Source of the DNA: a virus
Virus genome (UHGV): UHGV-1616770
Direction: 5' to 3' (one strand)
DNA: 13,110 nt
A model generated the notes under the pieces. The model did no database searches. It was not told the DNA's origin and saw only the letters and a list, made by a program, of their open reading frames with translations. Positions 4,118-13,100 of the stretch are shown here, piece after piece. Within the stretch, counting starts at the first letter, position 1; each line of letters begins with the position of its first letter. The translations under genes were made by a program, and so were the position numbers.

Positions 4118-5233
4118 TTAAATCCCTGCTTTTCTGAATACCTGTGCATCACGCTCACGGAGTTGCTTCAGCGTCAGCCATTCGCCTTTATCGGTGTAAA
4201 ATTCATCTGGCGACATACCGCCATCCCGAATCAGCTTTGCCCGGGTTTCCCCCACAATCTGTTTTTGTCTGGTGTAAGGCTGACGCAAAAACCATTCCCT
4301 GTAGGTTGTATCTCCGGCCACCACGCCATCCATGCTGGCCCGCTCAGCCGGGGAAATATCACGAACATCAATACCCAGTTCCTTCGCTGATTTCAGAATG
4401 AACGTTTCCGTTGAGCGGCAGCAGAAATGAATTTTTCCCGGCCCATGCAAATAAGGCACACTGTGACCTACAGGTTTATTATCCAGCGTATATTTGAGGC
4501 GATCCCTGATTCGACATTGTGGCGTAGTACGATTATCAAGCGTTGATAACCATTGCTTACCCTTAATCAAATCATTATTCGCGCTGGCAAAACTCTCACG
4601 GGCAGTAGCAGCAAGATGTCCAACCGCTGTTTTTGCAATGCTGGCCGCATTAGCCCGGCTCATCTGCAATGCACCATCCTGAAATCCCTTGCTGACATGT
4701 CCCCGAATTTTTCTTGCGATCTGCTCATTGGTATCCCCCAGCAAAAAACCCTGACGCACCGTATTTGTTATGCGTCTGAGCCGATCCGCCTCAAGATCCA
4801 AGGCCCACTCACTGAGCAGTCGTCCCTGGAATGGTCGCGCCATTGCAGCGGCGTAAAGTGCATCAGAAGATATACCAACCAGAGGGTGAACATCAGCAAC
4901 AAAATCAGGTAGCAGAGAATCAAACAGACTTAACTGATAACCAGCCTCATAAATTGCCAGCTCGTTCAGCTCTCCGGAGAGACTGGTAAACATGCTGTTA
5001 ATAGCAGCGCGGTTAACCTCTCTGACACTCGCCAGAAGTGACTCCAGGCGCGTAACGGTAAAACTACCAGGATCGAGGCTGTCCAGTGCTACCAGCAGGC
5101 GAGCTGTAAGCTCCGCATCGCTGTCATTCAGTATTTTCACCATTCTGGCAGCCACACCAGTGCTATAGCGGGATATCCAGACTGCATGAGCAATTGATTC
5201 ATCACGCAGCCGTTCATTCACGGTTTGCATCAT
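4118..5233 (-). CDS. Phage head morphogenesis protein, Mu F-like / SPP1 gp7 family
   Basis: 371-aa ORF immediately after the portal gene, with ATG at 5233..5231 overlapping the portal 3' end by 20 nt. It contains the conserved Cys/His-bearing region (…TPQCRIRDR…GPGKIHFCCRS…) typical of Mu F-like minor head proteins. TAA stop at 4120..4118. Confidence 0.8.
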   Translation of the reverse strand: MMQTVNERLRDESIAHAVWISRYSTGVAARMVKILNDSDAELTARLLVALDSLDPGSFTVTRLESLLASVREVNRAAINSMFTSLSGELNELAIYEAGYQLSLFDSLLPDFVADVHPLVGISSDALYAAAMARPFQGRLLSEWALDLEADRLRRITNTVRQGFLLGDTNEQIARKIRGHVSKGFQDGALQMSRANAASIAKTAVGHLAATARESFASANNDLIKGKQWLSTLDNRTTPQCRIRDRLKYTLDNKPVGHSVPYLHGPGKIHFCCRSTETFILKSAKELGIDVRDISPAERASMDGVVAGDTTYREWFLRQPYTRQKQIVGETRAKLIRDGGMSPDEFYTDKGEWLTLKQLRERDAQVFRKAGI

Positions 5234-6620
5234 TGATTTCCATCAGCATTACACTCTGATTTTTTAATTCATCGATCACTTCCTCTGGACGGGAATCCTG
5301 ATCGATAAATTTCAACGCCTGCAACACCCGAACCGCATCAATCTGACGTATATCACCGCCCTGACGCAATGACTGAACAGCCAGCGCGGAGGATGAGTCA
5401 AACACCTGGGCAGATACATCCAGTTCAGTGCGCACATCCACATTGCCACCGCAACTCTCTCCGCTCCATTCCGCCATTATCTGGAGAATATTATCGAGGG
5501 CATCTTCGAGGGAGTTCGCCATTGTATAAAGCGGCGAGTGTTCCTGCATCCGCTCTTCATTAGTCTGATCAACAGATTTGGTGGATGTATTTTCAGCCCG
5601 CAGAAGTTTAGCGCCGGCATGACGCATCTGATTTTCCAGCTTCTCAAGTGATGTTTCGCCAGATTCTATCGCTGCGCCACTATGTTCAACATATTCGAGG
5701 CCATTTTTTGTTCTGTCCTCAAAAATCGTAGCGGTGGATGCACCAACCGGCAGTTCTTCATTCCTGTCCAGCCCGTAGGCCACCAGCAATGGAACGCGGG
5801 CAACATGAAGAATATTGTCCTGCTCGCTCTGGCTTTGCCAGTGCTTGATATTCAGCAAGCCAAGATTAAGCAATGGCGGTGTACCACGCATAAACCCTGT
5901 TTTCTTCGTATACAGTGTTACCAGAGGAATATCATCACGGCTGGTATTCCATGACTCGTGAAGCGTCCAGACAGATTCGCCATTAGTACCTTCGCTGCGT
6001 CGATAAATTTCAACGCAACGGGGCATAATATGGCGGATCTGCTCCACCTTCTTCTGCCCGAAATCATCACCATCAATAATGATGACCTCTTTTATACGCA
6101 AATCAGTGAGAACAACTTTCCCTTTTTCAACTTTCGATTTCCATCCAATAACCTGGCGTGGATTCAGCATCGTAACGTACGGACGACCACCGGCCGCGTT
6201 TTCATCGGCTTTTGTCCGAATCTCTTTCATATCCGTTCGTGGATAGTCCACCAGCGCATGTGCCACACCATACTGAAATGCGAGGCTGAAAAATTGCTGC
6301 GCCCACACATCCAGTCGGCTCCCCTCCATGTCGATATTTTCTGCATATTCCCTGATTTTTGCCGGCGTTTCCTCACTCAATACTGTCGGCTCTGCAAATA
6401 TGCGCCCAATATTTTGCTTGATGCTTTCTTCATACACAGGAAGTAGCGTAGCCACAGACAGGCGTTTTTTATAAGCGTCTTCATCTTCGTTAGGCCATTT
6501 TGGGAGATAATTTTCCCCCTGCCTGCGCATTTCAAGCGTACCGCCCATCAGTGCGTCGTTAATATCCCACGCCTCCAGCATATCGTTATAGTCGAGGTTG
6601 GGTGTTGATATATCAGCCAT
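5214..6620 (-). CDS. Phage portal protein
   Basis: 468-aa ORF starting 2 nt after the TerL stop (ATG 6620..6618), in the standard position between terminase large subunit and head morphogenesis gene; the size fits SPP1-type portals. Confidence 0.85.
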   Translation of the reverse strand: MADISTPNLDYNDMLEAWDINDALMGGTLEMRRQGENYLPKWPNEDEDAYKKRLSVATLLPVYEESIKQNIGRIFAEPTVLSEETPAKIREYAENIDMEGSRLDVWAQQFFSLAFQYGVAHALVDYPRTDMKEIRTKADENAAGGRPYVTMLNPRQVIGWKSKVEKGKVVLTDLRIKEVIIIDGDDFGQKKVEQIRHIMPRCVEIYRRSEGTNGESVWTLHESWNTSRDDIPLVTLYTKKTGFMRGTPPLLNLGLLNIKHWQSQSEQDNILHVARVPLLVAYGLDRNEELPVGASTATIFEDRTKNGLEYVEHSGAAIESGETSLEKLENQMRHAGAKLLRAENTSTKSVDQTNEERMQEHSPLYTMANSLEDALDNILQIMAEWSGESCGGNVDVRTELDVSAQVFDSSSALAVQSLRQGGDIRQIDAVRVLQALKFIDQDSRPEEVIDELKNQSVMLMEINDANRE

Positions 6621-6622
6621 AA

Positions 6623-7924
6623 TTAAATCCGAAGTGATGTGACTCTTCCGGTCGGTTTGACAATAGGGAATTGCTTAACGATGAAATAACCTCCGGCATC
6701 ATTCGGGTGATCATTGCCAGATTTTTTATCAGGTTCCCCCTTCTCATCCCAGACCTGTTGCTCCAGAGATTCGGCATATAACGGGCAACGCTTCACATTA
6801 ACTTTATAGCGACGCTCACCATTGGCATTGCAGAACATTGCATTCATTGAGTTAACGCGATCTTTTACTGGCGGGTTCGAGCTGTTCACCACAACGTTAA
6901 AACCAGCCTGCTTAAGCTGGGCTATATCCGTCGTACTTGCGTTACTTGATTTTCTGGAATCCCCGGAAGCATCTGGATAAATATAAATTTCCCTCACTTT
7001 CCGGTAATCATTCCCATCATACAGCCAGAAGCGTTCTTTAATGATGCGGATCATATCCGGCGTATCGTAGGCATTGATGATTTCAGTTACCGCACATGGA
7101 AGCCCCAAACGCAGCACATGGACGATTCCCGCCATCTTTCCAACGTTAAAATCCATCCCAATATAAATCGGCTCCCCTGGCTGCTCCACTTCTTCGCAAT
7201 TATTCAGTTTCCGGTCAAACTGATGGTAAACAGTACCACTTGTCAGGTTAGTAAACTGTCCTCGAAGATAGGCTTTAATCAGCTCTGGAGGGTATGATTC
7301 AAGAAGCGAAGGAATGTAATCTGCTGGCAGGTTCTTTTCATTATCGAAAGTAGATGCCTGCACCAGACCATACAGTGAGGCCAGCTCTGTTTTTTCACGC
7401 ACGGCTTTAACAAACTGCTCGTAGACAAATTTGAATCCTTCCGGCGTGGTTGTAACGTCAATACCGTTGCGAAGTCCATCAATCTTATAACGCATACGCG
7501 CAATTATCTTGCGCCACGCCGTTCTGGCTTTTTCCTTCGGCAAAATGTCCAGTTCATCCACCAACGCATTACCAATTTTGAAACCGACGATCGTTTGTGG
7601 CTTCTCCATCGATCTGCAGATAGTGGTTCCCCGATACTGGCGTCCGTAATAAAAGTGAACCTCTTTATTTCCCTCATTAATTTTTACGTTCAATCCCCAG
7701 TCAGCAGCAACTTCTTCCACTGTAGGGTAAAAAATATCGCGAATTTGGGGATACGTTGGCGCAAAATATCCCTGATTTATACCAGGATGTTCCCAAATCC
7801 CCTTGCATATGCCACCACACCCAATCCATGTTTTACCCGAGCCAAAACCAGCGACATAGGCTTTAAATTTGTGGGGCATTGAAAGAAATCGCGCCTGAGG
7901 CACATTAAGCGTCGGAGAGATCAT
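6623..7924 (-). CDS. Terminase large subunit (TerL)
   Basis: Walker A motif GFGSGKT near the N-terminus and a hydrophobic-DE Walker B-like segment (ALVDELD). The ORF-track start at 7933 is GTG; I prefer ATG 7924..7922, which sits 8 nt after an AAGGAG RBS (ATG 7930 is a possible alternative), overlapping the terS 3' end. TAA stop at 6625..6623. Confidence 0.9.
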   Translation of the reverse strand: MISPTLNVPQARFLSMPHKFKAYVAGFGSGKTWIGCGGICKGIWEHPGINQGYFAPTYPQIRDIFYPTVEEVAADWGLNVKINEGNKEVHFYYGRQYRGTTICRSMEKPQTIVGFKIGNALVDELDILPKEKARTAWRKIIARMRYKIDGLRNGIDVTTTPEGFKFVYEQFVKAVREKTELASLYGLVQASTFDNEKNLPADYIPSLLESYPPELIKAYLRGQFTNLTSGTVYHQFDRKLNNCEEVEQPGEPIYIGMDFNVGKMAGIVHVLRLGLPCAVTEIINAYDTPDMIRIIKERFWLYDGNDYRKVREIYIYPDASGDSRKSSNASTTDIAQLKQAGFNVVVNSSNPPVKDRVNSMNAMFCNANGERRYKVNVKRCPLYAESLEQQVWDEKGEPDKKSGNDHPNDAGGYFIVKQFPIVKPTGRVTSLRI

Positions 7925-8999
7925 CTTCATCACTCCTTACTCTGGCATCAACCACATTAATATTGATCGCCACAGGTTGGGGATGTTCATTATCTTCCAC
8001 CGTTTCGATCTCTTTGCACAGCTTCTGGTTTTCCATTCTGCGCCGTTCAATTTCCAGTTCCTGTAGCCGCTTATCTGCACATAAAGCCCCACCAGCAGCA
8101 AGCAAACGCAACAATTCACGCCGGGCGGCAGCCTTATCCTCCAGCAGGATCTCAACACCAAATTTTCCGAGCTTTGCCCCTGCATATAATTGCCGCGCTT
8201 CCCCATCAAGCAGAGTGGTATCAGCCATATAAAGCTGCCCCGTTCCCTCACCGCAGCACTTCGGGCAGTCCGGATTGGGTATGGCGTTATCAACAAAGCC
8301 AAGGCCACCATATTCCGGCTCGGGTTTGCCATCTCTGGAGGCCTGCGACGCTGCCTTATCGAATTCTGCTATATCGCGCCACTGGTAGTGATGATTCTCG
8401 CCCCAGCAATAACGGCAGTTAACACGGCGAAATTGTGCCAACTGATTGGGGTCGGCCTGGACAATGGCCATCAACTGACTCACCAGTAAATCCAGGTCTG
8501 CGGTATAGCGTTTCTGGTACTGATTGCGGAAGTAGCTGATAGCACGAAAAACCTTAGGATTTCTTAGGAGCTGGCTGGCGGTTACGTAGGCCGCATTCCC
8601 CTCTGACTCGTATCCTGCCAGGCGATATGCCTCAACGAGTTTTTTCCCCTGGGCAACCAGCATTGCGAATTTCGCCTGCTGGTCAGAAACGCCGAATTCA
8701 TCGGGACAGAACGAAATTTCTTCCGCATCGCCCTCATTCAGGTACGCATCGGATACTGGCTTTTTTTCCTGAGATTTTCCGTTCCGCTTTTGTGCAGTCT
8801 GCGCAGATTTTTTCTGCGCACTTTTTTGCGCAGTTTTGCGCATTTCTGTCTGCGCATTTTTCGGAGGTTTTTTGATGTAACGACGGGCTGTTGCGTAATT
8901 CAGTCCCCTGGCTTCACACCATGCCACCGGAGATATACCGGAGCGGGTGTATTCAGCAATATACTCCTGCTGCAACGCCCCCCAGTCCGGTCTGCTCAT
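7905..8999 (-). CDS. Terminase small subunit (TerS), unusually long multi-domain form
   Basis: 364-aa ORF immediately upstream of TerL. It has an N-terminal HTH-like segment, a basic K/A/Q-repeat linker, a segment resembling the terminase small-subunit HTH (…AYRLAGYESEGNAAYVTASQLLRNPKVFRAI…), a Cys cluster (C-x2-C…HH…C-x2-CC) and a C-terminal coiled-coil-like tail. ATG at 8999..8997, AGGA RBS. Confidence 0.7.
   Translation of the reverse strand: MSRPDWGALQQEYIAEYTRSGISPVAWCEARGLNYATARRYIKKPPKNAQTEMRKTAQKSAQKKSAQTAQKRNGKSQEKKPVSDAYLNEGDAEEISFCPDEFGVSDQQAKFAMLVAQGKKLVEAYRLAGYESEGNAAYVTASQLLRNPKVFRAISYFRNQYQKRYTADLDLLVSQLMAIVQADPNQLAQFRRVNCRYCWGENHHYQWRDIAEFDKAASQASRDGKPEPEYGGLGFVDNAIPNPDCPKCCGEGTGQLYMADTTLLDGEARQLYAGAKLGKFGVEILLEDKAAARRELLRLLAAGGALCADKRLQELEIERRRMENQKLCKEIETVEDNEHPQPVAININVVDARVRSDEDDLSDA
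8791..8856. repeat. Cluster of palindromic TGCGCA hexamers interleaved with T/A tracts inside the terS 5' region
   Basis: Plus-strand TGCGCA at 8800, 8815, 8827, 8837 and 8851, plus TGTGCA at 8791, each flanked by T-runs, with 9-15 bp spacing. On the coding strand these encode the Ala-Gln-Lys repeat linker of TerS. Confidence 0.5.
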
Positions 9000-9002
9000 C
9001 AG

Positions 9003-9254
9003 TTAGTCCTGATTTTTATCCACCCTGAGTAGTTCGCGCAGGGCAAAGGCATCCCCTTTTCTGGCAAGCTTAAACAATGCCGCCCGTAGCTCGGCTTCAC
9101 CTTTCGCTCTGCCCTTACGGATGGACGCGTAAAAATTTGTCATTGCTTCCCGATTTTCTTTCAGTCGGTTCAGATCAACATCCAGAACGTCAGCGATTTG
9201 TTGTGCAGTCATCCGGCACGCTGCCAGAGACTCGACTTTCGAATACGGAATCAT
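9003..9254 (-). CDS. Small helix-turn-helix-like protein upstream of terS (packaging-associated or regulatory; function unknown)
   Basis: 83-aa ORF with ATG at 9254..9252 and a GGGGGTGA RBS; its stop at 9005..9003 is 3 nt before the terS ATG. The sequence is predicted helical and basic C-terminally (…MTAQQIADVLDVDLNRLK…). It overlaps the 3' end of the upstream reading frame by 65 nt. Confidence 0.5.
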   Translation of the reverse strand: MIPYSKVESLAACRMTAQQIADVLDVDLNRLKENREAMTNFYASIRKGRAKGEAELRAALFKLARKGDAFALRELLRVDKNQD

Positions 9255-9726
9255 TTGTCACCCCCATTAATATGCAGGGTGTCTTCTTCCTGTATTTTTC
9301 GTGAAGGATTTTTACTGCAGCGTTGTTCCAGGTGACCTGATGATGAATGCGTTTATGGCTGGCGCCCATCAGTGAGATTTTTACGCACGACGGCGCATAC
9401 ATGACGGAATAAAAACTTTTAACGTAGGTCCCGGAATCCAGATACAGCTCGGTCATTCCGCCGCTGTTTTTCTGCGTCTGTTTCTGCCCTAACTGGACAG
9501 CACCGATCGTCATAAACAATTCACCACGGCGACCGAGATTCGTGTACGTATTCACATCCTCGTTAATGCGCCCCATGAATGAGAACGGTCGATCAACCGA
9601 ACAGATAAAGCTGTTCATTGCCTTGCGTTTCACCCACGAAGCATGGCCGCCATTGTCACCAAGAAAATCCCCGCCCTGCGACATAGCGATGGAAAGCACG
9701 GGCATTGATTCGTAATACGCCAGCAT
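9190..9726 (-). CDS. C-terminal portion of the GT-A-like gene (same reading frame, downstream of the in-frame amber)
   Basis: 178 codons open in the same frame as 9769..10122 (10122 minus 9726 is 396, a multiple of 3). There is no Shine-Dalgarno before the ATG at 9726, so independent translation is doubtful. TGA stop at 9192..9190. Confidence 0.4.
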   Translation of the reverse strand: MLAYYESMPVLSIAMSQGGDFLGDNGGHASWVKRKAMNSFICSVDRPFSFMGRINEDVNTYTNLGRRGELFMTIGAVQLGQKQTQKNSGGMTELYLDSGTYVKSFYSVMYAPSCVKISLMGASHKRIHHQVTWNNAAVKILHEKYRKKTPCILMGVTNDSVFESRVSGSVPDDCTTNR

Positions 9727-9768
9727 TTCAGAAAGGATCGCATCCAGTTTCCTTATCGGGAAATAGGC

Positions 9769-10122
9769 CTAGTCATAGTTGCGATCCACCCGAAACTGGA
9801 ACTCGTGATAATCATCATCGAGCTGAATGAAGTATTTACACCCGACCAGTTTTGCCAGGTCGAAACAGGCATTACGGGCGTAAAAAATTGAGCGGCGGTC
9901 ACCAAAATTATCGGCTTCGTCAAAACGACTGGCAATATCGGCTTTGGAAAATACCAGCACCTGTTCACCAAATTCAGCCATGTACTGATGCCGTGTCTTA
10001 TCTTCATCATCAACAACGATAAAAATTTTCCCGGTATAGCCAGCACGACGCAACGTCCGGTAAGTCAGAACTTTGTCCGGTCGCCCGTGAGTCAGAATAA
10101 AGGCGCAAAAATCATCACGCAT
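9769..10122 (-). CDS. GT-A-fold glycosyltransferase-like protein, N-terminal portion ending at an in-frame amber codon
   Basis: Strong GGAGGAGG RBS and ATG at 10122..10120 overlapping the ParB-like gene stop (ATGCGTGA). The N-terminus has a strand-helix-strand pattern (FCAFILTHGRPDKVLTYRTLRRAGYTGKIFIVVDDEDK) and a later DxD-like motif (YFIQLDDDYHEF), resembling nucleotide-sugar transferases. The frame ends at TAG (plus 9769..9771 reads CTA). Confidence 0.55.
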   Translation of the reverse strand: MRDDFCAFILTHGRPDKVLTYRTLRRAGYTGKIFIVVDDEDKTRHQYMAEFGEQVLVFSKADIASRFDEADNFGDRRSIFYARNACFDLAKLVGCKYFIQLDDDYHEFQFRVDRNYD

Positions 10123-10903
10123 ATTCCTCCTCCCCGCTATGCATGATCGCCACCATGCGCTGCGTCATTCGGACAAATCCATTTTCAATAGCCTGCTGAT
10201 AATCAATGATCACCAGCGCCGACTCCTCGAAAAGGCACTGAATTTCAGCGGGGGCATGAGCGTAATAGTCCGCAATTCTGCTGAAATTAAACACCGTGTG
10301 ACGTTCTGCCGCACACAGGAGGAATTTCTCAATATCAGGATCAAGGGACGCCGAACGTATCCGGCTGATCAGCTCCTGAGTTTTCGTATCGTCGTACAGT
10401 TCACTGATATCCGGTTTACCGCCCGACGGCTCATAAACAGGCGTATCAATTTTCGTCGTATACGGCTCCTCCTTATTTCCTGTACCGGGCAAAACATCCG
10501 TCAACAGTTCATCAATTTCTGTCGGGCCGAAGCCTGTCAGGGAGACATCAAAATCAGCATTGATTAGGTCCGACAGCTCCATCCGCAACAGATCTTCATC
10601 CCAGCCAGCATTCATCGGTAGGCGATTATCTGCCAGGCGGTACGCCTTTTTCTGCTCATCCGTCAGGCCAGACAGAACAATGACCGGAACAGAATCCATT
10701 TTGAGCATTTCAGCCGCCATAACACGACCGTGACCCGCAATAATTTCGCCCTTTTCGTCAATCAGCACCGGATTAGTCCAGCCGAATTGCTTAATACTTT
10801 CTACCAGTTGTGCCACCTGCTCAGTACTGTGCGTCCTGGCGTTGTGCGCATACGGTGACAATTCTTGTAATGGGCGATAGACTATCTTTAATTTCTCGCT
10901 CAT
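10115..10903 (-). CDS. ParB-like nuclease domain (ParB/Srx fold) protein
   Basis: 262-aa ORF whose N-terminal domain matches the ParB N-terminal pattern (…YRPLQELSPYAHNARTHS…QLVESIKQFGWTNPVLID…EIIAGHGRVMAA…). ATG at 10903..10901 with an AAGG RBS; the stop overlaps the start of the downstream gene. Confidence 0.8.
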   Translation of the reverse strand: MSEKLKIVYRPLQELSPYAHNARTHSTEQVAQLVESIKQFGWTNPVLIDEKGEIIAGHGRVMAAEMLKMDSVPVIVLSGLTDEQKKAYRLADNRLPMNAGWDEDLLRMELSDLINADFDVSLTGFGPTEIDELLTDVLPGTGNKEEPYTTKIDTPVYEPSGGKPDISELYDDTKTQELISRIRSASLDPDIEKFLLCAAERHTVFNFSRIADYYAHAPAEIQCLFEESALVIIDYQQAIENGFVRMTQRMVAIMHSGEEEYA

Positions 10904-10918: not shown

Positions 10919-10954
10919 GAATAAAACGCACCCCAGCAGCCAGTGCTACTGGGG
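10919..10954 (-). terminator. GC-rich hairpin plus U-tract downstream of trkG (putative intrinsic terminator)
   Basis: Plus CCCCAG (10931..10936) and CTGGGG (10949..10954) are reverse complements, with an inner CCAGT/ACTGG pair. On the minus-strand RNA the hairpin is followed by UGCG then UUUUAU (plus 10921..10926). It lies between the trkG stop (11041) and the ParB-like start (10903). Confidence 0.45.
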
Positions 10955-11040: not shown

Positions 11041-12498
11041 TTAGGAGCGCCAAAAAAAACCTGAAAACAATATAATAACAGGATAAATTTCAAGGCGACC
11101 AAGAATCATAGCTATGCACATTAAATATTTTGCAATGTCATTAAGCACTCCGAATGACGATGCAGTAGCCCCAAAACCTAATCCCATATTATTAATACAT
11201 GCAGCCACTGTTGCAAATGATGTAAGAAAATCATATCCCATACCATTTAACACCAGTATAAAAAACACCGTGAAGAGAGTATAAAGAAAAAAGAAACTCC
11301 ATACAGACCTCATTACACGATCTGTAACTATCTTCCCTCCTACATTTACACTCAACAACGCTCTGGGATGAGAAAGCTGATTTATCTCGTGTTTGCTTTG
11401 TTTGAAAAGTATAAGAAATCGAAGTGACTTAATTCCACCACAAGTTGAACCTATACATCCCCCAAAGAAACTTGACGACAGCAAAAACACTATCGTGTGC
11501 GTGGGCCAGTTTGCATAATCCTGCGTAGCTAAACCATTATCAGTGAGCATGGAGCTGGCAAGAAAAAACGAATGAATAAAACTTCCATGCAAGTCATACA
11601 TACCTATATGCCAGACCTGGAAAGAGGTAACAATGATCACCCCTAAGGCTATTAACAGAAAGAAACGAAGTTCAATATCTCTGATTAAAGGTTTTATCGT
11701 TTTCCTGCTAATAACAATATACCAAAGAGTGAAGTTGAAAGCCGATAGCAGGGAAAAAGAACCAGCCACCAGCTCAACCAAATAGTTATTAAAATATCCG
11801 ATACTCTCGCTATGAGTTGAGAAACCACCAAGCGAAACTGTGGAAATCCCGTGACAAATAGCATCAAACAAAGGCATTCCTGCAAGTCTATAACAGACAA
11901 TACAAGCAATACCTAATAAAGAATAAGTTATCCACAGTGTCCGTGACGTATCGGCCAGGCGGGGAGTGAGTTTGTCATCCTTAAATGGCCCCGGCATTTC
12001 TGACTGATAAAGCTTTGCACCACCAATACCCAATAATGGCAATACAGCAACCGCCAGAACAATAACTCCTAAACCACCTATAAAATTTAACTGTGACCGA
12101 TAGTACAAATATGCCCGAGGTAATGAACTAACATCATCAATTACAGTTGCTCCTGTTGTTGTTATTCCAGAAACCCCTTCAAACAGAGCATCAATGAACG
12201 TTAAATTAAGTTCTGAGTCAATCCATAAAGGGAATGCACTAATAACAGAAAACAAAATCCAAAACATTACAATTATAATAAACCCATCACGGGTACGTAA
12301 TTGAATGCCAGATTTCTTAGTTGTATACCACGCTCCGCCACCAATGCAAAAAAATATAACGAAAGTTATAAAGAAAACGAACAGGCTTTTTTCTTTATAA
12401 AACAATGCTACAACCATTGGTGGCAACATTGAAAGACTATAGAGCCAAACCAGGAACCCACACATATGAGTAACAACTCTTACATGAGATGTATTCAT
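11041..12498 (-). CDS. trkG: TrkH/TrkG-family potassium uptake protein (prophage moron)
   Basis: Polytopic membrane protein; from ATG 12498..12496 (MNTSHVRVVTHMCGFLVW…) it is 485 aa, which I recognise as E. coli Rac-prophage TrkG. The ORF-track start at 12516 is TTG and likely an over-extension. The gene is visibly more AT-rich than its flanks. TAA stop at 11043..11041. Confidence 0.9.
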   Translation of the reverse strand: MNTSHVRVVTHMCGFLVWLYSLSMLPPMVVALFYKEKSLFVFFITFVIFFCIGGGAWYTTKKSGIQLRTRDGFIIIVMFWILFSVISAFPLWIDSELNLTFIDALFEGVSGITTTGATVIDDVSSLPRAYLYYRSQLNFIGGLGVIVLAVAVLPLLGIGGAKLYQSEMPGPFKDDKLTPRLADTSRTLWITYSLLGIACIVCYRLAGMPLFDAICHGISTVSLGGFSTHSESIGYFNNYLVELVAGSFSLLSAFNFTLWYIVISRKTIKPLIRDIELRFFLLIALGVIIVTSFQVWHIGMYDLHGSFIHSFFLASSMLTDNGLATQDYANWPTHTIVFLLSSSFFGGCIGSTCGGIKSLRFLILFKQSKHEINQLSHPRALLSVNVGGKIVTDRVMRSVWSFFFLYTLFTVFFILVLNGMGYDFLTSFATVAACINNMGLGFGATASSFGVLNDIAKYLMCIAMILGRLEIYPVIILFSGFFWRS

Positions 12499-12516
12499 AT
12501 CTAAATATTCTTTCAA

Positions 12517-12635: not shown

Positions 12636-13100
12636 TTACTTTAAACACTGTTCGGTTATGTATTGCTGAGCACCTTCAAGTTGGGCCTGCATCATTACCA
12701 GTCGTTCCCGGAGGGTGAAATAATCCCGTTCAGCGGTGTCTGCCAGTCGGGGGGAGGCTGCATTATCCACGCCGGAGGCGGTGGTGGCTTCACGCACTGA
12801 CTGACAGACTGCTTTGATGTGCAACCGACGACGACCAGCGGCAACATCATCACGCAGAGCATCATTTTCAGCTTTCGCATCAGCTAACTCCTTCGTGTAT
12901 TTTGCATCGAGCGCAGCAACATCACGCTGACGCATCTGCATGTCAGTAATTGCCGCGTTCGCCAGCTTCAGTTCTCTGGCATTTTTGTCGCGCTGGGCTT
13001 TGTAGGTAATGGCGTTATCACGGTAATGATTAACAGCCCATGACAGGCAGACGATGATGCAGATAACCAGAGCGGAGATAATCGCGGTTACTCTGTTCAT
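12636..13100 (-). CDS. Rz: Rz-like i-spanin (inner-membrane spanin)
   Basis: 154-aa ORF with an N-terminal transmembrane segment ([18 protein letters not shown]) followed by a charged coiled-coil-like periplasmic domain; it is near-identical to phage lambda Rz as I recall it, and contains the embedded Rz1 frame. Coordinates follow the ORF track. Confidence 0.9.
12695..12880 (-). CDS. Rz1: Rz1-like o-spanin (outer-membrane lipoprotein), embedded in the +1 frame of Rz
   Basis: 61-aa ORF with signal peptide and lipobox (LPLVVVGC) followed by a proline-rich segment ([13 protein letters not shown]), nested wholly within Rz in another frame, which is the classic lambda Rz/Rz1 arrangement. Confidence 0.85.

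Follow-up and report, generated by a model that had tools for sequence, protein, structure and literature searches.

The window analysed here, a 13,110-nucleotide (nt) stretch of the virus genome UHGV-1616770, carries two overlapping genes encoding a glycosyltransferase (GT) of the TAGT family and a ParB/Srx-fold partner protein. Like the other relevant genes, both lie on the minus strand. They open the packaging part of the late operon in a Rac-like lambdoid prophage, and the region shares 98% identity with induced Escherichia coli 'vB_EcoS' phages. The module is widespread, ancient and strictly paired, and lacks the acceptor pathway expected of its enzyme family; its component families are known, and the copy in the window is broken. 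We tentatively read the pair as a two-subunit late GT that may act on phage DNA around packaging. Its elements are:

10115..10903, minus strand: ParB/Srx-fold partner gene (262 aa, isoelectric point (pI) 4.6; Pfam ParB_N 8.8e-7, phrog_620 3e-90)
9190..10122, minus strand: TAGT-family GT-A glycosyltransferase gene (310 codons plus stop; interrupted in the window)
10115..10133, minus strand: coupling junction, from sequence (GGAGGAGG at 10126-10133, then AAT, then ATGCGTGA at 10115-10122)
9811..9819, minus strand: DXD ('DDD') metal and nucleotide-sugar motif, D102-D103-D104 (GATGATGAT)
9769..9771, minus strand: in-frame amber TAG at codon 118 (CAG, Gln, in relatives; alignment A1)

The downstream product is a bona fide TAGT member by sequence, fold and motif. 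Against Pfam PF20691 (TAGT, for TET-associated GT-A DNA glycosyltransferases) it scores 123.4 bits (cut-off 27.5; E 1.5e-35), with residues 8-222 aligned to positions 4-205 of the 205-position profile, and it matches phrog_842 at 1e-102. It has the Rossmann-like GT-A fold with its DXD, and R14, D38, D41, D102-D103-D104, N187, D189 and H260-H261 are invariant in 26 homologues, E188 being nearly so (alignment A2). The protein carries the R...DDD...ED(Y/F) motif, its third element reading E-D-V. This motif is shared by active phage GT-A DNA glycosyltransferases and the kinetoplastid JGT (bioRxiv 10.1101/2023.12.21.572611), and PF20691 also includes the T2/T6 beta-glucosyl-hydroxymethylcytosine (HMC)-alpha-glucosyltransferase. 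Profile and structure searches thus bear out the preliminary description of this DNA, which had taken the product for a GT-A-type nucleotide-sugar transferase; its further statement that it recognised no characterised system needs qualifying, since both Pfam (TAGT) and the NCBI annotation pipeline PGAP, which names the E. coli GT 'GREB1-related protein', recognise the family. A sequence search of the PDB returned nothing at E up to 1, and no model for the protein was found in NCBIfam or PADLOC. The contextual hallmark of the family, a TET/JBP enzyme or a hydroxymethylase, is missing. The enzyme is mildly basic (pI 8.4). E. coli-lineage copies end in a tail of ~21 aa (window 9190-9254) that homologues from other genera, 283-290 aa long, lack; this tail overlaps the start of the small downstream open reading frame (ORF) by 23 nt, or by 65 nt if that ORF starts at 9254.

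The two genes meet at an 8-nt overlap, ATGCGTGA, which holds both the ATG of the GT gene and the TGA of the partner gene (10115-10117); a strong ribosome-binding site, GGAGGAGG, ends 3 nt ahead of that ATG. The overlap and the strong site had been proposed from the letters alone and are confirmed. The partner is built from three regions, laid out beside its client gene and delimited on an AlphaFold2 (AF2) model as residues 1-135, 137-168 and 172-255:

10499..10903, minus strand: ParB-type N-terminal domain, nucleoside triphosphate (NTP)-binding-like (residues 1-135; AF2 predicted local distance difference test (pLDDT) 74-92)
10409..10471, minus strand: motif within the disordered acidic linker (Y148-T149-x-K151-I-x-x-P155-x-Y157-x-P159...P164)
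10139..10390, minus strand: helical acidic C-terminal domain (residues 172-255, ~85 aa; lower-confidence AF2)

The N domain scores 29.3 bits against Pfam ParB_N (cut-off 26.3) and resembles Noc, ParB and KorB in Foldseek (4e-7 to 1e-5); its nearest structures include the Myxococcus xanthus, Caulobacter crescentus and Bacillus subtilis ParB, Noc and KorB, and hidden Markov model alignments reach PDB entries of ParB, Noc and Spo0J at E 1.8e-5 to 2e-4. Residues 3-141 also match the N-terminal domain of phage ParB-DNA methyltransferase fusions (phrog_498, 3.7e-51; PADLOC MTase_II, 1e-38). Some of the residues that correspond to the ParB CTP site are conserved (R23, S36, G41, P45, G57, R60 and N93) and others are not: box I retains its Ser, Gly and Pro, box II its final Arg and box III its Asn, but box II reads GHGR and not GERR, with loss of the Glu and the first Arg, and the Gln of QPR is replaced by N21. 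The protein matches no helix-turn-helix (HTH) model in Pfam, and in the AF2 model only short helices at 103-134 precede the disordered linker. A role in partition was rejected on the lack of an HTH, the lack of any annotated parA in the whole prophage and a net charge of -21: the partner is a ParB/Srx-fold protein and not a partition protein. Nor does any feature support the earlier label of 'nuclease'.

The linker (residues 137-168, pLDDT <50) contains a motif whose columns are invariant both in alignment A3 and in 27 distant non-redundant partners, with the consensus Y-[T/S]-x-K-[I/V]-x-x-P-x-Y-x-P...P...L. Of 150 distinct partners, 143 carry it; the first Tyr is followed by T in 129 and by S in 13. 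The C domain reads FLxxAAERHTVFxF..IADYYAH..Q.LFE.SALVIID..AIE.G in the window and FL..AA.RH.VF....IA.YYAH...Q.LME.SALVIID...AIE.G as a family consensus. No Pfam match to it was better than 0.003, and a weak Phage_Gene47 signal in 6 of 22 members was treated as noise. When the partners of 27 non-redundant loci were aligned, the C domain proved to be the best-conserved region and the ParB N domain the least conserved. Among the 150 distinct partners the N domain is present in 123 (~85%) and absent in 16-26 (11-17%), and the Vibrio-phage partner, of 139 aa, consists of motif and C domain only. The invariant elements of the partner, as judged from these alignments, are therefore the linker motif and the C domain, not the ParB domain. 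Throughout the relatives the motif and C-domain regions are acidic (median pI 4.8) and the GT domains basic (median 8.8).

Pairing of the two genes extends far beyond this lineage. The two-gene region is found at >=80% coverage in 889 of 5,426 complete E. coli genomes, about one in six. In close relatives, located with profiles of both proteins, the ParB-like gene stands directly upstream of the GT in 89 of 89 loci (GT identity 58-100%), and 76 further loci came from scanning viral contigs with more distant relatives (39-45% identity), the partner being there in every one that had enough upstream sequence. After refinement of start codons, 147 of 159 distinct loci have the two genes side by side, and a single gene separates them in the other 12; the loci come from E. 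coli, Salmonella and Yersinia prophages, Lactobacillus and Vibrio phages and a haloarchaeal virus. The genes overlap by 4-35 nt in 142 of the 159, most often by 8 nt (68 loci) or 11 nt (51 loci). The expectation that the pair would co-occur elsewhere is thereby upheld by the neighbourhood survey. The GT family as a whole is large: a library-wide profile search gave 1,501 cluster representatives at 50% identity, 716 of them below 1e-30. Isolated carriers comprise Lactobacillus phages c5 and phi jlb1, Nocardia phage NTR1, 191-kb Vibrio phages and the haloarchaeal virus HHTV-2 (gp21/gp22), with GTs 42-47% identical to the E. coli protein. In the virulent phage c5 the pair forms the first two genes after cos, and in the Vibrio phages it is placed among primase, exonuclease and helicase genes. 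Between genera, synonymous divergence (dS) is saturated and nonsynonymous divergence (dN) is 0.12-0.36 for the GT and 0.31-0.49 for the partner; the dN/dS of the GT is 0.07-0.09 in the three comparisons with estimable dS, a pattern of strong purifying selection on the family.

Searching from the partner's side gives the same pairing. A C-domain profile recovered 66 loci, of which 63 could be assessed, and all 63 have a TAGT gene one or two genes downstream, directly after the partner in 52. In the other 11 (L187, L191, L192, L194, L195, L198, L217, L219, L221, L225 and L230), a ~322-aa fusion of a histidine phosphatase (His_Phos_1) with a cytidylyltransferase-like domain stands between partner and TAGT; it looks like a dedicated pathway for a nucleotide-activated donor. 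At L182 (5572-7254), a 560-aa ORF joins the partner to this phosphatase/cytidylyltransferase protein, not to the GT. No partner-GT fusion was found among proteins with N-terminal extensions, since neither of the partner's profiles, ParB or C-domain, matches those of P0258, P0267, P0263, P0294 and P0300. Three GT relatives (P0248, P0254 and P0287) carry a fused class-I methyltransferase or Sulfotransfer_2 domain, and a UDP-galactopyranose mutase gene adjoins the pair at one locus; these hint at tailored (methylated, sulfated or furanose) glycans.

The position of the pair is equally constant. In Salmonella, Yersinia and one more distant locus, ParB_N and TAGT genes are followed by terminase genes, even as the terminase, portal and capsid types differ; in Salmonella and Yersinia, an ORF of ~83 aa and terS stand between the TAGT gene and the remaining terminase genes. 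Over 27 loci made non-redundant at 80% GT identity, families of the terminase large subunit (TerL) were matched 23 times within three genes downstream, as Terminase_6N (13), Terminase_3 (9) and GpA (1), where one protein could match two terminase models. The preliminary description had placed the pair in a moron slot between lysis and packaging genes, as accessory cargo. The reading as cargo does not hold: the GC content of the pair, 47-51%, equals that of terS/terL, and a promoter scan gave 8 sites against 7.9 expected, which is chance level. On these grounds, and on a terminase linkage kept across three TerL families, the pair was rejected as a lambdoid moron. The moron of this slot is instead the adjacent trkG, which has a GC content of 35-40% against ~50% around it and a terminator of its own. 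The same evidence bears on the idea that the pair is a moron or lysogenic-conversion transferase altering host surface polysaccharide in the manner of Gtr or TarP. Beyond backbone GC, a promoter signal no higher than chance and the link to terminase, neither protein has a membrane segment (maximum 19-residue hydropathy 1.07-1.25), there are no GtrA/GtrC-type neighbours, and the pair occurs in virulent c5, in 191-kb Vibrio phages and in an archaeal virus. We consider surface conversion very improbable.

These observations frame the working model that we favour, though with less than even confidence: a two-subunit late GT acting on phage DNA around packaging. The GT would be the catalytic subunit and would use a nucleotide-sugar donor. 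The partner's linker motif and C domain, we infer, would dock onto the GT and activate it, and the ParB-type N domain, where present, may link the enzyme with double-stranded DNA, by analogy with a phage ParB homologue that activates its cognate thymine dioxygenase. Overlap of the stop and start codons would keep both proteins made together. Newly replicated DNA, at or just before packaging, appears the likeliest target because the pair precedes terS/terL and is expressed late, and the modification would protect it from host nucleases or defence systems. DNA modification leads among the readings because the GT belongs to a DNA-glycosyltransferase family and has an obligate ParB-like partner beyond this lineage.

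Several observations weigh against this model. The N domain is missing in 11-17% of partners, so DNA clamping is not the core mechanism, and the partner has a net charge of about -21 and no DNA-binding domain. That the invariant Tyr is strictly followed by T or S would suit an acceptor site on a protein as well, and GREB1, a relative in the family, glycosylates a protein, O-GlcNAcylating the oestrogen receptor. The last two points favour the main alternative, an arrangement in which the partner itself is the acceptor and receives a sugar on the Tyr or on the Thr/Ser of its linker motif, yielding a glycoprotein for packaging or for the virion. Glycogenin, which primes itself on a Tyr, offers an analogy. 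An invariant Pro and aromatic residues are, however, equally usual in a docking peptide; the characterised viral TAGT-type enzymes all act on DNA; the ParB domain finds its closest matches in DNA methylase fusions; and the Vibrio phages put the pair among replication genes. Taken together, this arrangement seems rather unlikely.

A further objection to DNA as the target concerns its chemistry. All characterised TAGT-type enzymes use a hydroxyl made by a TET/JBP or hydroxymethylase-type enzyme, or a sugar already in place. No TET/JBP, ThyS-type hydroxymethylase or DNA methyltransferase is annotated in the whole Rac-like prophage, nor are these three enzyme types annotated in the 31.8-kb phage c5; no TET/JBP or hydroxymethylase lies within ~8 kb on either side at the Salmonella, Yersinia and other loci, and none of the three types is among the 25 most frequent families listed near the 27 non-redundant loci. 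The enzyme therefore belongs to the class of orphan GT-A proteins or 'solitary TAGT'. The latter group accounts for 288 of 753 TAGT-carrying phage genomes, with its function left undefined (PMC13216743), and Pyle et al. found 65% of viral GT-A contigs to have no base-modifying neighbour. It is possible, if doubtful, that this clade uses no hydroxymethyl-pyrimidine at all and glycosylates unmodified DNA (base, backbone or terminase ends) or, glycogenin-like, its partner's Tyr/Thr.

Lack of a DNA acceptor pathway in the prophage also speaks for a role in counter-defence, in which the sugar would be placed on a host defence protein, on a nucleotide immune signal or on host DNA or RNA, with the ParB fold as an NTP-binding or kinase-like accessory. 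Salmonella loci carry Acb2/Tad1-hairpin and AcrVA2-like genes in the same region, and the ParB/Srx fold includes kinases (SerK) and sulfiredoxin. Those neighbouring anti-defence genes vary, though, and the fixed neighbour is terminase; such genes tend to be early ones, and the pair stands with the packaging genes of a late operon; and PADLOC gives no match for the GT. We judge counter-defence unlikely, and retain late modification of phage DNA as the reading to be preferred.

The copy in the window is itself interrupted. The GT frame (9190..10122) comprises 311 codons with one internal TAG, at codon 118, and is open for the remaining 192 codons. Because this stop splits the frame, the ORF list shows two GT ORFs (117 and 178 aa). 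The preliminary description assumed an intact gene, did not flag that the stop makes this copy a probable null allele, and gave a 296-aa read-through translation; that figure is the sum 117+1+178, and the true read-through product has 310 aa. Codon 118 is CAG (Gln) in the three relatives inspected, in which the GT is intact. A 61-nt probe centred on it matched 914 complete E. coli genomes, none of them exactly and the best with one mismatch. Strain EcPNK004 encodes an identical ParB-like protein (100%), and its GT is separated from that of the window by a dN of 0.006. Since relatives have Gln, 0 of 914 genomes share the stop, the frame stays open and EcPNK004 is near-identical, the amber reflects either a nonsense mutation of very recent date or a sequencing error, and the gene is intact in other respects. 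The stop lies 13 codons after the DDD, so that the shortened product is without the ED and HH elements, and the allele is probably null unless the host has a Gln-inserting amber suppressor.

This lesion could be taken as a sign that the pair is a functionless, decaying remnant of a ParB / TET-JBP / TAGT hypermodification cluster whose dioxygenase was lost, an idea in keeping with the family name, with a literature that ties TAGT and ParB to TET/JBP clusters and with the survival of a mere stump in E. coli K-12. Decay is hard to reconcile with strong purifying selection, with an intact GT in the three relatives and a stop found in none of the 914 probe-matched genomes, with conservation across domains of life at 42-47% identity with the overlap kept, and with an amber that is private and followed by 192 open codons. 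It is the least probable of the explanations considered, and for the family as a whole these observations largely refute it.

The K-12 stump can be explained. K-12 strains (MG1655, BW25113 and others) match the window at 10650-10903 only, with 100% identity. Because the match is limited to this interval, ynaK is the 5' stump of the ParB-like gene (its first 254 nt, ~85 codons). In an intact Rac-like prophage (MB49; L090 18859..19218), the small gene ydaY has the tail tube gene on one side and the tape measure gene on the other. The ynaK-ydaY junction of K-12 therefore marks a single large deletion, which removed the 3' part of the ParB-like gene, the GT and the terminase, portal, capsid and tail tube genes, and ydaY is unrelated to the GT. 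The suggestion that the pair corresponds to a K-12 ynaK/ydaY remnant thus stands for ynaK and fails for ydaY. Where the 262-aa ParB-like gene is intact, PGAP records a partial 'ynaK' pseudogene of 258 nt (RefSeq L002, L003 and L090) and leaves the C-terminal two thirds unannotated; it seems to take the truncated K-12 protein as its reference for the name. In an overexpression screen, the 87-aa K-12 YnaK, a fragment of the ParB N domain, is reported to have raised the minimum inhibitory concentrations of six antibiotics 3-6 fold, by a mechanism that was not given (PMC12924614).

The neighbouring features, in the direction of transcription, are:

12636..13100, minus strand: Rz
11041..12516, minus strand: trkG moron (Pfam TrkH 6e-144)
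10954..10931, minus strand: trkG intrinsic terminator, just upstream of the ParB-like start (10-bp stem, 7 bp GC)
9003..9212, minus strand: small basic HTH-like ORF between GT and terS (69 aa, or 83 aa from start 9254; phrog_309 'terminase small subunit' 2.5e-22)
7905..8999, minus strand: terS, terminase small subunit (Pfam Terminase_2)
6623..7933, minus strand: terL (Pfam Terminase_6N/6C)
5214..6620, minus strand: portal (Pfam DUF4055)
4118-5233, minus strand: Mu-F-like minor head protein (Phage_Mu_F / SPP1 gp7-like, residues 154-275)

The small HTH-like ORF, annotated in relatives as a 210-nt coding sequence, is present at the Salmonella and Yersinia loci and absent from many others; it is a member of the packaging genes and stands outside the pair. 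Beyond the portal follow the Mu-F-like minor head protein, a DUF6651 protein and a P22-type coat. Related GenBank phage records label the minor head protein 'NAD+--asparagine ADP-ribosyltransferase'; no ADP-ribosyltransferase domain was found in it by Pfam or NCBIfam. Within the 5' part of terS, window 8800-8860 (plus strand) holds five TGCGCA hexamers at 10-14 nt spacing in nested inverted repeats (TGCGCAGA/TCTGCGCA). This cluster also scores as three terminator-like hairpins, and its position suggests a candidate pac or TerS recognition site. Immediately ahead of the module, relatives have a variable slot with toxin or anti-defence cargo: an Enterotoxin_a/Scabin-like ADP-ribosyltransferase with an LT-IIB subunit in a Yersinia prophage (L007 2180-3332), and Acb2/Tad1-hairpin, AcrVA2-like and Cas1-like genes in Salmonella prophages (L004-L006).

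How phage DNA is glycosylated has been explained only for systems that begin by making a hydroxylated base, as in T-even HMC, the TET/5mYOX systems and base J. The window provides a tractable E. coli example of the orphan GT-A/TAGT class, and adds that this GT never stands alone. It is locked to a partner defined by a Y-T...P-x-Y peptide and a previously undescribed acidic domain, to which the ParB NTP-binding domain is a frequent addition, and the pair heads the packaging genes of phages with at least three different terminase families. Should DNA be what is modified, the principle of ParB as an activator of DNA-modifying enzymes would extend from dioxygenases to glycosyltransferases and would imply a new acceptor chemistry; should it be protein, the pair would constitute a new viral glycoprotein system. 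Use of unmodified DNA or of the partner's Tyr/Thr as acceptor would amount to a new kind of phage glycoconjugate. The analysis also gives K-12 ynaK an origin and identifies an intact gene that RefSeq mislabels as a pseudogene.

In the literature we found no functional study of the pair and none describing an obligate partner-TAGT pair, the linker motif or the C domain. For the enzyme, the closest systems are the T2/T6 beta-glucosyl-HMC-alpha-glucosyltransferase and the metavirome GT-A enzymes, which share PF20691, the GT-A fold and the R...DDD...ED motif and are likewise phage-encoded and soluble. They act on 5-hydroxymethylcytosine (5hmC) or glucosyl-5hmC, supplied by a dCMP hydroxymethylase or by a C5-methyltransferase plus TET, and nothing of the kind is present here; conversely, the obligate partner of this clade has no counterpart among the T-even enzymes. 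More distant members of the same GT-A assemblage, likened here by naming and description, are the kinetoplastid base-J JGT and vertebrate GREB1. JGT uses 5-hydroxymethyluracil made by JBP1/2, and neither it nor GREB1 has a ParB-fold partner.

For the partner, the nearest parallel is ParB176, which is required for its cognate thymine dioxygenase, 5mYOX176, to act on double-stranded DNA (O'Toole et al. 2026, PMC13229309). Both proteins consist of an N domain, a disordered linker and a C domain, lack a DNA-binding domain and are encoded beside a DNA-modifying enzyme, or here its putative equivalent, often near terminase; the nearest structures of both are M. xanthus or C. crescentus ParB or Noc. 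This likeness is one of described layout. The client of ParB176 is a dioxygenase, whereas here it is a glycosyltransferase with no dioxygenase present, and both domains are needed in ParB176, whereas the N domain is dispensable in 11-17% of the partners described here. The commonest neighbours reported for phage dioxygenases are GTs (31%), ParBs (27%) and terminases (19%), and an earlier proposal that ParB directs modification machinery during packaging is cited by Burke et al. 2021. The phage fusions of a ParB domain with a DNA methyltransferase (phrog_498, PADLOC MTase_II) share the partner's type of N domain. Unlike them, the partner stands as a polypeptide by itself, bearing a motif and C domain of its own, and its enzyme is a glycosyltransferase; the shared N domain nevertheless indicates that this type of ParB has repeatedly been attached to DNA-modifying enzymes.

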